NCBI GenBank assembly: GCA_951406725.2
Contig: OX597816.1
Location: forward strand, 7,998,001-8,062,000
Direction: 5' to 3'
DNA: 64,000 bases
Source: Octopus vulgaris
Taxonomy: Eukaryota
The position numbers were made by a program, and so were the translations under genes. Under the pieces are notes generated by a model, which was not told the origin of the DNA, ran no database searches, and saw only the letters and a list, made by a program, of their open reading frames with translations. The number at the start of each line of letters is the position of its first letter. Position 1 is the stretch's first letter. Shown one piece after another: positions 13,223 to 63,990 of the stretch.

Positions 13223-14053
13223 TATAAAGATAATTAAACAGTGTATGTTTATGCACAACACAGCGTAAATCAGAAGAACAGAAATGAATTTAAATATCAT
13301 AAAGTCTCACTGTGAATAGCGAATCCAGTCTATGCTATTGTATGCGAAAAAGAGGGAGGGAGTCTCGTGACGGACATTTCTCAATTTGCTGTCCGCTCGT
13401 CAGAGTGGCAGACGATTTTTCTCAAAAGGAAAGAATATATTTAATTTCACACAGACATACGTATAAAAAGGAAATACAGAATACCTATACGAAAGAAAAT
13501 AATTTAATATTTAATCTCTCTCCCCTCACACACATTTGTATTAACAGATTTGCTGTGAAGTGTTCTATAGATGTAAAAAGCACATCCGATTATACATGTT
13601 TTCAACAAAGGTGTCATTTTCTGTCATTGAATAAAACTCATTTTTTTTTTGACACAGGTGCACTAGTATTTAACAATGGCTAACAAAAACAGACCAGTCT
13701 TCGTGTGATAAATCTCAGTGATTAGAGATGATTCATTGGGTTGCGGTAAAAGGAAATATCCGTCTCCCTCGTTCATAACTCTTCGAACAATCTTTCTTTT
13801 ACCTAACAACGACCTGACCCAGTGCTTATCTTTAGAAACCTATCGTTCCTGTTAGTCATAACTGTTTCAGACATTACAGTCCAACGAAATTATTTCAGAG
13901 GCACAGGAGTGGCTGAATGGTAAGAAGCTTGCTTACCAACCACATGCTTCCGAGTTCAGTCCCACTGCGTGGCACCTTAGGCAAGTGTCTTCTACTATAG
14001 CCTCGTGATTGGATTTGGTAGACGGAGACTGAAAGAGGCTCGTCGTGTGTGTA

Positions 14054-14091
14054 TCTTTCTGTTGAAGAGCGTAGGCTCGAAACGTAAAAGA
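14054..14091 (+). ncRNA. Minimal hammerhead ribozyme motif, CUGUUGA core variant (copy 1)
   Basis: tcttt-CTGTTGA-A-GAGC-gtag-GCTC-GAAA-C-GTA-aaaga, inside a short element (about 14045-14187) followed by (TA)n. Confidence 0.65.
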
Positions 14092-14186
14092 CTTGTTTTA
14101 TTTATATTCCTGAGCGCCATACTAATACAATTGTTTGTTTGTATTCCACCTGCCTTCGTCTTTTGTTTATTTTCATAAAGCTTCCC

Positions 14187-14232
<46 letters not shown>

Positions 14233-39766: not shown

Positions 39767-39955
39767 CAGTCAAGACGAAGAGCGCGATTCGATTGCAAGA
39801 GATCTTACTGAACGATATTTCAACAGTATGTCTGTCCTTGTCAAGTTCAAAATAAGAAGTGATAGAAATTCAGGAACTTGACAAAGACAGACATACTGTT
39901 GAAATATCGTCCAATAAGATCTCTTACAATTGAATTGCGCTCTTCGTCTTGACTG
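39767..39955. repeat. Long inverted repeat (about 82-bp arms, 25-nt spacer)
   Basis: CAGTCAAGACGAAGAGCGC...TTGTCAAGTTC and GAACTTGACAA...GCGCTCTTCGTCTTGACTG, with a few transitions. Confidence 0.92.
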
Positions 39956-40214: not shown

Positions 40215-40277
<63 letters not shown>

Positions 40278-40353
40278 TCGCCATGTTGATTCGCTAGCTT
40301 CTGCACGCATTTTTTTTCTCTCCTTGTTTCTCTCCGTGTTTCTTTTCTGTGTA

Positions 40354-40391
40354 TCTTTCTGTTGAAGAGCGTAGGCTCGAAACGTAAAAGA
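40354..40391 (+). ncRNA. Minimal hammerhead ribozyme motif, CUGUUGA core variant (copy 2)
   Basis: The 38 nt are identical to 14054-14091. The host element (about 40276-40487) lies between (TA)n tracts. Confidence 0.65.
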
Positions 40392-40534
40392 CTTGTTTTA
40401 TTTCTATTCCTGAGCGCCATACTAATACAATTGTTTGTTTATATTCCACCTGCCTTCGTCTTTTGTTTATTTTCATAAAGCTTCCCGTTATATATATATA
40501 TATATATATATAGTAAGGACCGTAGATGGATGTG

Positions 40535-47140: not shown

Positions 47141-47254
47141 ATATATATATATATATAACGGGAAGATTTACGAAAATAAACAAAAGACGAAGGCAGGTGG
47201 AATACAAACAAACAATTGTATTAGTATGGCGCTCAGGAATAGAAATAAAACAAG

Positions 47255-47292
47255 TCTTTTACGTTTCGAGCCTACGCTCTTCAACAGAAAGA
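47255..47292 (-). ncRNA. Minimal hammerhead ribozyme motif, CUGUUGA core variant (copy 3)
   Basis: Exact reverse complement of 14054-14091, in an element at about 47159-47320. Confidence 0.65.
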
Positions 47293-47378
47293 TACACGGA
47301 AAAGAAACAAGGAGAGAAACAAATAATAAATTATTATTTACGTATATTTATTAATTATTTTATTATTGTAGTTATCTT

Positions 47379-49295: not shown

Positions 49296-49328
49296 TTTAA
49301 CGTTTCGAGCGGAGCTCTTCGTCAGAAA
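49296..49328 (-). ncRNA. Minimal hammerhead ribozyme motif (CUGACGA)
   Basis: Minus strand: ttt-CTGACGA-A-GAGC-tcc-GCTC-GAAA-C-GTT-aaa, in an element at about 49192-49393 next to (TA)n. Confidence 0.7.
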
Positions 49329-60690: not shown

Positions 60691-60770
60691 ATTCAAAATG
60701 TGACCGCGTGTGTACCGTTGGCGATTTTTTTTCCTCCATCTTCCCTTCTTTGGATCTTTCCTTTTCCTAT

Positions 60771-60964: not shown

Positions 60965-62217
60965 GGGTTGGTCAAAATAATGGAAACACCTTAAAATTTC
61001 AAACAAATTAATTTTAATATAGGGTAGGACCGCCTTTGGCAGTAATTACAGCTTGAATTCTACGAGGTATGGATTCGTACAAAGTTTGAATTGTTTCCAA
61101 AAGAATTTTTGTCTATTCTTCAGCTAAAACAAACTCCTGTTCTTGTAGTGATGAAGGTGGAGGATATCGAATCCTTACTTGTTTTTCTAAAATGCACCAT
61201 AAATGCTCAATAATATTGAGATCTGGGGACTGTGGTGGCCAGATAAGATGTTCAACTTCACTAGAATGTTCCTCGTGTCATTCAGTAGCAACTTTAGCTG
61301 TGTGAATTGGTGCATTATGATCCTGAAAGATGGCATTTCCCTCCGGAAGCAGTTCTGCAACCATAGGATGAATTTGATGAGATAAAATGCTTAAATAGTC
61401 TTGACTATTAATTCTACCATGAAGGGAAACCATTGGGCCGGCGGTTTCCAAGATATAGCCCCCCTCCCCCCGATCATCACAGTTCCTCCTCCATGTTTAA
61501 CAGCTGGAAGAAGGCAGTCTGGGTCAATTGTTTCTTTTGGCTGTCTCCACACGTATACTCAGCCAGTGGTCGGAAATAAGGTAAAGGAAGACTCGTCCGA
61601 GAAAATAACATTCTTCCACTGCTCTAGGGACTAATTCTGTAGGTTTTTACTCCACTCTAAACGCTTTGCAACTTTTGTTTTTGAAAGTAGTGGTTTTCTG
61701 ATTGCAACCCTCACGTGAAATCCAGCTTTGTGCAGCTCCCGGCAAGCGGTTTTTGTGGAAACTGGGTTCTCGAGGTGGTCATTAAACCCTGCAGTAATTT
61801 TGGGAGCCGCACTTTTGTGATCCTTTCTAAAAATACGCGTAAGAGTCCAACGGTGTCTACATGAAAGTTTTGCTTCGACGAGGAGGTTTTTTCCCTCTTT
61901 CCCAAAGGCTGTCATTACTTCCGAGACAGTACTTCTTGATACACCAAACATTTCGGCTGTTTTCGTTACGCTAGCGCCTGCCATACGAGCACCAACAATT
62001 TGAGGTCTTTGAAAGTCTGATAGATCTGTCATTTTAATGGATTTTAATTACCTTTTTCTGAGGATATCTGAAAAGAAACAGCAATTTTAGCAAAACATAT
62101 TAAGCAACACTAATAATAAATCAAAAAACAAAAATTAACAGACTTTTGACAGTTTTATAGATATTTCAAAATTATGATGCTATGATGCTTGGTGTTTCCA
62201 TTATTTTCTTCAACCTG
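60962..62217 (-). mobile_element. Tc1-like element with TIRs and decayed transposase
   Basis: TA|CAGGGGTTGGTCAAAATAATGGAAACACC ... GGTGTTTCCATTATTTTCTTCAACCTG. Translations include MTDLSDFQR.QIVGARMAGASVTKTAE, VIFSDESSF, FQDHNAPIH and SPDLNIIEHLW. Confidence 0.92.
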
Positions 62218-62239
62218 TGTGTATGTGTGTGTATGTATG

Positions 62240-62325
<86 letters not shown>

Positions 62326-62326
<1 letters not shown>

Positions 62327-62527
62327 CTTTACTAGAATGTTCCTCGTGCCATTCAGTAACAACTTTAGCTGTGTGAATTGGTGCATTATGATCCTGAAAG
62401 ATGGTATTTCCCTCCGGAAGTAGTTCTGCAACCAGAGGATGAATTTGATGAGATAAAATGCTTAAATAGTCTTGACTATTAATTCTACCATGAAGGGAAA
62501 CCATTGGGCCGGCGGTTTCCAAGATAT
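62326..62527 (-). mobile_element. Duplicated internal Tc1 fragment
   Basis: Near-identical to about 61258-61457 and abutting the Penelope RT. Confidence 0.85.
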
Positions 62528-63990
62528 AGACACCCTGTTAAAACAACTCCTCAAACATGTCAAAAGCTATACAAGGGACGACTTGGATATGCTCAATCAC
62601 CTACCGAATACTATAAACAAAAACACCACACTGGTATCCTTCGATGTTGTCAACCTCTACTCCAATATCCCCCAAAACCTAGGACTAGAGGCAATCCAAT
62701 TCTGGCTAGAGAATCACGCCAACGAACTACCACATCGCATCAAAAAAGAATTCGTGATAGAAGGGGTTAAATTCATCCTGGAAAATAACTTCTTCGCCTT
62801 CAAAGACAACTTCTACCGACAAAAATCGGGGACTGCGATGGGTACACGAATGGCCCCCTCCTTTGCCAACCTAGTCATAGGATATCTAGAGATCAGTCTG
62901 TATCGTAAGGTTCTAGAAAGATATGGCAGCCCTTTCTCCATCTACATAGAAAACAACTGGAAGAGATATCTAGATGACTGTTTCATTCTTTGGCATAAAA
63001 ATATAGAAAAACTCATAGAATTCCAAGAAATTTTAAACGGACTGGACGTAAACATCCAATTCACGATGGAATATAGCCAGCAACAACTCCCCTTCCTCGA
63101 TATCCTCATTAAGAAAGCTAATAATGTAATAGAAACAGACATATATTATAAGCCTACAGATTCTAAGCAATATCTTCCATTCAATTCATGCCACCCCAGA
63201 CACACCAGGATGAATATCCCCTTCAATCTAGCAAAAAGGATATGCACTATAGTTTCTAATGCAAACACCAGAGACACACGACTACAAGAACTAAAAGATA
63301 CCCTTTCACCAGGAACTACCCACCTTCACTTATTGACATGTGCATTCAACGTGCCCTTCAACTTAACATCAAGGAACTGAGACATCCCAAATCAAAGAAA
63401 AACTTACGACCAAAAGCCTTACCATACATCTCCACACACAACCCTCTCAATAATGAAGCATTCGGCACCATCCTCCACAACATGCCCCTCCTAAAAAAAG
63501 ACCACAGAATGAACACAATCCTCCAAACACACACGATCATAAAAAGCAAGAGACAGCCTAAATCTATGAAAAGTCTCCTAACACAAGCCCGAATACACTC
63601 TTCAACACAAGCCGACAGTAAAAAAATATGGAACACCCAATTGCGGGATATGCGATTATCTAATTGAGGGATCAGAGTTCTCCTTCAAACAGGGACAACG
63701 GTTTACAGTGAAAAGCAACTTCACATGTGCTTCGGAGAACCTAATATACTCACTAACCTGCTCCGGGTGTCAAGAGCAGTACATAGGCCAAACAAAAAAT
63801 AGTTTGCGTAAAAGAATGGCCCTGCACAGATCCCAGATAAAATTCCCCAAAACAGAAAAATAGCTTTCAGCCAACACATAGATACTTGCGCCAACAACAA
63901 AACACCAGGCTTCAGGATTTTCCCCCTCTACCAATTTAACGGGTCTACGACAAACGATTAATATACCTCAACTTTAGAATAAAAGAAATA
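62528..63990 (+). mobile_element. 5'-truncated Penelope-like element (RT + Cys-rich linker + GIY-YIG), frameshifted
   Basis: LVSFDVVNLYSNIP, YRQKSGTAMGTRMAPSFANL, WKRYLDDCF, LPFLDI, YYKPTDSKQYL..SCHP. After frameshifts: CGICDYL...FTCASENLIYSLTCSGCQEQYIGQT...LRKRMALHRSQI. Confidence 0.93.

Follow-up and report, generated by a model that had tools for sequence, protein, structure and literature searches.

A natural A6U variant of the minimal hammerhead motif in the terminal repeats of an abundant Penelope-like element of Octopus vulgaris

The closest described relatives of the motif analyzed here are the minimal hammerhead ribozymes (min-HHRs) that lie within pseudo-LTRs of metazoan Penelope-like elements (PLEs) (Cervera and De la Pena 2014, PMC4209133). 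According to the portions of that report used here, they have a type I layout with a U-rich 5' flank, an extra base after A9, a G10.1-C11.1 pair closing stem II, no loop III, palindromic positions 15.2/16.2 and an NUH triplet, and they occur as one motif per terminal repeat, mostly in solitary truncated copies. Both the published consensus (CUGANGAH) and the search descriptor demand A6, U3-A8 is the sole core variant in the text examined, and the same portions describe min-HHRs as cutting poorly even as dimers. A natural pyrimidine at position 6 is known from the hammerhead of phage Bcep176 (Perreault 2011, PMC3088659; Naghdi 2020, PMC7151607), a single phage sequence with C6 that has been assayed and is slow in Mg2+ and faster in Mn2+; in the relevant sections of these papers natural A6C hammerheads have low but detectable activity, and good rates are recovered in Mn2+ (PMC7151607). 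The Poseidon element PAc of Anolis (PMC11167929) carries a hammerhead near the start of reverse transcription, and in the part of that study on which we draw the motif cuts only with the element's protein, uncut RNA is apparently the main template, and hammerhead mutants insert normally in vitro, which makes cleavage dispensable for insertion in one in vitro study. Finally, elements of the Neptune clade, as presented in part of Craig et al. (2021, PMC8557442), encode a reverse transcriptase (RT), a CX2-5CxxC linker and, at the C terminus, a GIY-YIG domain with an internal CxxC, and show microsatellite targets and partial tandems; the purpose of PLE hammerheads is called unclear in the same source.

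Here, we analyzed a 64-kb window (the whole stretch of O. vulgaris DNA under study, 64,000 nucleotides) in which the same 38-mer occurs without a single difference at 14054-14091 (+), 40354-40391 (+) and 47292-47255 (-). The next match at up to 12 mismatches is a single sister-family copy at 60770, with 11 mismatches. A sequence-only reading of this DNA had described three identical 38-nt motifs with hammerhead anatomy and U in place of A6, and sequence comparison within the window confirmed that description. The motif is of the minimal type I layout and lies on the sense strand of the element's open reading frame (ORF). In the first copy, the core C3-U4-G5-U6-U7-G8-A9 with its extra A occupies 14059-14066, with U6 at 14062 and the variable N7 at 14063. 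Stem II (GAGC/GCUC with a GUAG loop) follows at 14067-14078, and its majority state is constant in all U6 subfamilies sampled. The segment at 14079-14086 contains G12-A13-A14, the ACGU palindrome (15.1-16.1) and A17, with the predicted cut between 14086 and 14087. Stem I reads UCUUU/AAAGA and the 3' part reads A15.1 C15.2 G16.2 U16.1 A17; judged from these letters, the palindrome would make stem III only between two motif copies. A shifted register, UUGAAGA (U3-U4-G5-A6-A7-G8-A9), was also considered and rejected, as it breaks stem II and its 'U4' is the freely varying N7. Further downstream, a CCYGAGCG block (14109-14116) is conserved in both U6 and A6 sister families; in both, its potential pairing partners are G12 and the 3' strand of stem II (predicted probability 0.11-0.40), and such pairing would be a possible inhibitory switch.

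Comparison with the min-HHRs revealed that every feature tested is present in the octopus motif except A6. Stem I has 5 bp in the window copies and 4 bp in older layers, within the published range of 4-5 bp, and stem II, which forms in the predicted fold, has 4 bp and is shorter than in most min-HHRs in the part of the report that we used (PMC4209133). The extra A after A9 and the loopless stem III, which the sequence-only reading had regarded as oddities, both belong to the metazoan PLE consensus set out in that part of the report; thus, only A6U departs from the published min-HHR design. The Rfam hammerhead models detected neither the U6 motif nor the canonical A6 sister copy in the window, and are therefore uninformative here. 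In comparison with Bcep176, the octopus has U6 in a dimer-type motif that is present in about 20,000 copies, has evolutionary depth and is known from sequence alone.

The three motifs lie in PLE tails of 140 bp (14048-14187, +), 213 bp (40275-40487, +) and 164 bp (47159-47322, -), which share the 3' end CTTCCCG followed by (TA)n and differ from each other at 2-4 positions per 140 shared bases. The 5' end of the second tail (40275) coincides with a truncation hot spot of the family, ~105-110 nt upstream of the cut. The first tail adjoins a tRNA-SINE-like repeat on its upstream side and (TA)n on its downstream side. This abundant SINE-like repeat, whose head we take to be tRNA-like, lies at 13901-14046 and in about 15 other places of the window, and one of its copies is joined directly to the first PLE tail.

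Longer genomic copies run upstream through a C/T-rich tract into an endonuclease (EN) reading frame. A protein search, in which 150 of 18,557 candidates were scored and many scores were equal, yielded open frames of up to ~1,200 codons, and 20 loci with long frames were taken from it for analysis of the layout. The repeat unit measures ~4.5 kb, and the ATG of its ORF lies ~760 nt downstream of the motif, whereas the ORF of Anolis PAc begins inside the motif, and whereas protein-assisted cleavage has been shown in vitro for that element in the part of the study used here (PMC11167929). The ORF matched Pfam RVT_1 with 32.1 bits (cut-off 29.6) and GIY-YIG with E=0.005, which is below the cut-off; a GIY-YIG-type motif with CxxC is present in the sequence, and Pfam gave no match to the endonuclease region alone. 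DKG, GVAMG and YIDD motifs were identified, together with a CX4CxxC linker (residues 836-844) between RT and EN. Exact U6 motifs were found on both sides of the ORF, ~4.5 kb apart, in 11 of the 20 long loci, and a twelfth locus has a one-base motif variant on the downstream side; tandem copies with long open frames thus carry U6 in both terminal repeats. A single ORF with RT and C-terminal GIY-YIG, a partial tandem pseudo-LTR layout and 5'-truncated copies are all features of EN+ PLEs, and by its sequence features the element is an EN+ PLE of apparent Neptune type, with a linker that also occurs in Nematis.

Because the long loci show a 4.5-kb unit with motifs flanking the ORF, the window copies are 5'-truncated tails of an autonomous PLE, which is very abundant and has recently been spreading. 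The sequence-only reading had seen 140-210 bp elements ending in CTTCCCG/(TA)n; the ends were described correctly, but these are not independent elements. Its suggestion to look for full-length PLEs with the motif was borne out by the 11 long loci. A non-LTR retrozyme, with non-coding tandem units of 170-400 bp, was rejected, as the unit here is 4.5 kb long and coding and the short copies examined are solitary, truncated and share one 3' end. We also looked for a second canonical hammerhead within the 4.5-kb unit and found no other core on the sense strand. Two antisense core-like strings are present in the unit.

To count the base at position 6 across the 2.8-Gb genome, a 32-nt pattern with this position left free was used. 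It had 4,993 matches, and the reversed-pattern control had 0, which shows that the motif is not a product of chance. A6 occurred in 12 of the 4,993 matches, of which nine can be assigned by their flanks to young or middle layers and the other three to old ones. A further 14,718 matches were obtained for non-A6, non-U7 cores with the identical stem II, and U6 was found in 99 of 100 among the matches listed; as the two sets are disjoint, there are at least about 19,500 U6 copies. A6 cores with the GAGC/GCUC stem II were found 6,225 times, 96 of 100 among the matches listed having other loops and belonging to sister families; of these, the families with UCC/UUU loops are the closest true relatives with A6. 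Three A6 sister-family tails lie in the window itself, at 49325 (-), 29550 (-) and 60774 (+), with CUGACGA and CUGAAGA cores and, in the third, a G8 change. They have the GAGC/GCUC stem II and a downstream CCTGAGCG block in common and are natural positive controls.

A core-blind sample was obtained by searching on stem I and the downstream flank only, which gave 14,730 matches, of which 101 copies were scored. A6 was present in none of them. Among the 95 flank-selected copies without indels, 93 had U6; N7 was U in 37, C in 20, A in 23 and G in 15, and N17 was A in 68, U in 25, C in one and G in one, so that the H17 rule (A, U or C) is followed by 94 of the 95. All sites other than N7 and N17 had the majority base in 86-95 of the 95 copies, with the lowest values at CpG positions. 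The invariant core residues C3, U4, G5, G8, A9, G12, A13, A14 and A15.1-U16.1 are the majority state in all layers, in 90-95 of 95 copies per site. These counts, and the presence of U6 in both repeats of long-frame copies, show that U6 is the state of the master element and not a product of decay, as the sequence-only reading had proposed; the genome-wide count of U6 against A6 that it had suggested gave a family majority of U6. In the oldest layers, 100 copies among the 528 matches were counted by hand, with U6 in 89, C6 in eight and A6 in three. An ancestral A6 subfamily within the GUAG-loop lineage had been suggested by a tree that included copies chosen for A6, and was rejected in view of this count; the A6 copies within this lineage are most likely mutations after insertion. 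The eight C6 copies among the oldest GUAG-loop layers (including L383) may be post-insertion transitions or a small C6 subfamily, and the latter, if real, would be a counterpart to the A6C variant of the phage. Four organisms have the tail together with the letters diagnostic of its subfamily, in a comparison that records presence only and resolves no base variants, even at N7.

A tree on the flanks alone, combined with the oldest-layer count, gave the following ladder of master states from oldest to youngest: U6U7, U6C7, U6G7, U6A7, U6C7, U6U7/GUA (the window copies) and U6U7/GUU. In each of the subfamily layers sampled, which span a synonymous divergence of at least 0.35, the majority base is U6; the samples behind the ladder come from the places listed first on contig C1, and masters with altered flanks could escape the anchored patterns. 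In the endonuclease region, the U6G7 layer (eight copies) and the youngest layer (10 copies) differ at 29 of 104 four-fold sites (Jukes-Cantor (JC) distance 0.35) and at 19 of 355 zero-fold sites (0.056). The distance of copies to their subfamily's own majority is 5.2% for U6G7, 1.7% for the window subfamily (three copies) and 0.2% for the youngest. Between six copies of the oldest layer and the youngest, 172 of 428 four-fold sites differ, a figure that includes the decay of those six copies themselves, and the zero-fold difference is 0.15. The 28-nt block of the oldest-layer majority equals that of the window, 14 of the 28 bases being fixed by the search pattern. Thus, the sequence-only reading of U6 as a trait of a young family did not hold, since 89 of 100 oldest-layer copies listed already have it and the divergence spanned is at least 0.35.

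Within the block, the majority base is unchanged at 26 of 28 positions, and only N7 (U/C/G/A) and N17 (A/U) turn over. At a rate of 0.35, 12 core sites would all escape fixed change with a chance of 0.015, and 26 sites with one of about 1e-4, from which we conclude that the block is under purifying selection at the level of the master. The constraint spans loop II and stem II as well as the catalytic residues. N7 (window position 14063) changed three times within the 0.35 interval, which is above the neutral expectation (p=0.005), and about five times along the whole ladder; such rapid turnover possibly reflects escape from a host factor. It should be noted that the neutral chance of no change at U6 is about 0.6-0.7, and its non-reversion alone is no evidence of selection for U. 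The pattern as a whole, with N7 and N17 free and the rest fixed, resembles catalytic constraint. On these sequence comparisons, the U6 variant is real, fixed, old and constrained.

Several indirect lines bear on cleavage. We found 94 places that have the sequence downstream of the cut but lack the normal preceding bases, and 23 of the 30 inspected were true truncations. Copies starting within ~2 nt of the cut number about 72 of an estimated 5,500 (1.3%), without a peak, and starts at the cut are spread over positions that are ambiguous through TA microhomology. Of 36 intact short copies, half (18) have their end at the base of a predicted hairpin, 100-115 nt upstream of the cut (window ~40275-40285), and this hot spot is either a reverse-transcription stop or a transcript start. 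Of the 5' ends near the motif that are joined to (TA)n, hand counts placed 7 of 34 in U6 loci and 6 of 32 in A6 sister loci at 0 to +2 of the cut (Fisher p=1). As the A6 sister family is also without a clear pile-up of 5' ends, this test may be blind, and it does not distinguish a slow ribozyme from a dead one. Ends that lie a short way upstream of the cut made up 11 of 34 in U6 and 4 of 32 in A6 sister loci (p=0.08), an excess that is a weak hint of less cutting with U6. The upstream cut was the 5' end in none of 20 long copies, 12 of which run through both motifs. Nearly all insertions carry the uncut motif. Few copies begin at the cut and long copies run through it; with either core type, the template is thus mainly uncut RNA.

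Folding with nearest-neighbour energies, in which tertiary contacts are ignored, predicted that the U6 monomer forms a rod of -10.2 kcal/mol, in comparison with -7.8 kcal/mol for L036, a natural A6 copy of the same subfamily; the predicted G5-C15.2 pairing is 0.98 in the former and 0.10 in the latter, and the predicted cost of the active dimer is 5.7 and 0.9 kcal/mol, respectively. In the U6A7 and U6C7 layers the predicted dimer cost is only 1.3 kcal/mol, which would make the brake layer-dependent. A U6 dimer could be drawn, at a predicted -14.7 kcal/mol.

On this evidence, we see about an even chance that the motif is a braked ribozyme, which depends on a dimer or on protein and rarely cuts. 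A6U likely slows self-cutting to a trickle. From the position-6 literature, the substitution would weaken the CUGA turn, and U4-G5-U6 would pair with A15.1-C15.2-G16.2, by which the monomer would be closed as an inactive rod and the dimer palindrome hidden; cutting would then need a second motif copy and probably the element's own protein. Reverse transcription would start ~100 nt downstream of the cut and would have to cross the site, so that uncut RNA would serve as the useful template and little would be lost through slow cutting, which may even help the element. Occasional dimer cleavage of tandem read-through transcripts, with unit release or circle formation, could keep the rest of the core fixed. 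The positions that turn over, N7 and N17, coincide with the free positions of a working hammerhead, and the palindrome has persisted, suggesting that catalytic geometry still matters. Removal of an upstream AUG as the cause of U6 was rejected by reasoning only, as a change at N7 would do the same for free.

The strongest competitor, which we regard as clearly less probable but serious, is that catalysis is dead or irrelevant and that the 28-nt block persists for its RNA structure, or as a DNA signal, recognized by the element's protein or by host factors, with A6U tolerated, or favored in that it stops cutting of the template. Loop II and stem II are conserved as strongly as the core, which a protein-binding site explains equally well; other blocks of the tail are conserved too, U6 would make a continuous rod, and a 5'-end peak at the cut was not seen. 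It would also accord with the normal insertion of the Anolis hammerhead mutants and, in the part of Craig et al. used here, with the Naiad PLEs, which thrive without canonical hammerheads (PMC8557442). However, the turnover sites are exactly those free in a working hammerhead; N7 would lie opposite A14 in the rod, yet all four bases occur there; and the ACGU palindrome has been retained although it is needed only for a dimeric stem III. In addition, the A6 sister families show similar free positions.

More doubtful is the idea that U6 is a second working core, adopted more than once by PLEs as a switch that would be off as a self-paired rod in solitary copies and on via protein, a partner copy or metal. 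If it were true, functional ribozymes would have escaped A6-based descriptors by the tens of thousands in each genome. Improbable, too, is a fully working U6 core that cuts in cells as well as A6 does, with the help of protein, a dimer or Mn2+, the RNA being rejoined into template circles. The good rates of A6C in Mn2+ (PMC7151607, in the section used) and the success of the lineage, whose motif copies outnumber those of A6 sister families sharing its stem II by a factor of ~3, favor such a core. All tandem junctions shown among the long copies look alike, and uniform junctions would fit a circular template, but read-through of tandem transcripts accounts for them without circles. Furthermore, in the part used of a comprehensive mutagenesis of another hammerhead (PMC9901934), CUGA-turn mutants showed low activity, with a C3-G8 swap as the sole rescuing second mutation, and the two youngest layers are predicted to form the closed rod.

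A neutral relic, in which A6U ended the ribozyme's activity and decay of the block is still to come, is largely refuted and very improbable. A6 in 44 of the 44 rows seen of the published min-HHR alignment would suit it, but the descriptor behind that alignment required A6 (PMC4209133), and the near-complete lack of fixed change in the block, for which the chance is about 1e-4, speaks against it, as the synonymous divergence covered is at least 0.35 and the flanks and N7 changed repeatedly. Least credible of all is that U6 is kept for a 3' splice site that overlaps the motif and whose polypyrimidine tract would be longer with U6: the first AG within the motif follows a pyrimidine tract of 50 nt, and the report on min-HHRs mentions, in the part used, that PLE terminal repeats can hold introns ending at stem I, the D. 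virilis intron ending at helix I (PMC4209133), but the A6 sister families have the same tract and contigs of four probable RNA runs showed no splice joints within 1 kb around the motif, a weak test confined to contigs.

Whichever of these readings applies, the locus offers a natural controlled experiment, with a U6 lineage that has long frames and almost identical young copies, rare A6 copies in the same subfamily and abundant A6 sisters with the same stem II, and thus a natural test of whether RNA cleavage is required by PLEs. Should U6 cut, a natural alternative is tolerated at a position held to be invariant, and ribozymes are undercounted by standard searches; should it not cut, a hammerhead fold has long been retained for a non-catalytic job. 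No description of a natural A6U hammerhead was found in the literature searched; outside it, work of 2017 by Luense and colleagues, reportedly on about 150,000 PLE variants, and by Arkhipova and colleagues may contain one. New here are the age of the variant, its subfamily ladder, the quantified constraint and the occurrence of U6 in tandem copies with long open frames.

Some further features of the region were observed. At 62466-63827 (+), the window contains broken frames of a further Penelope-like RT/endonuclease, which shares 28% identity with the ORF of the U6 family. Transposase-like fragments at 61631-62537 (-), which we take to resemble Tc1/mariner transposase, are split by a (TA)n run. 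A long near-perfect hairpin at 39800-39922 gave a sub-threshold Rfam match of miRNA type and is possibly a small inverted-repeat element. Elsewhere in the genome, L133/L134 (G000:C1:1878305-1878476) and L060 are inverted pairs in which two U6 tails, separated by 150-400 bp, stand head-to-head, a layout already known for PLEs from the part of the min-HHR report used here (PMC4209133).
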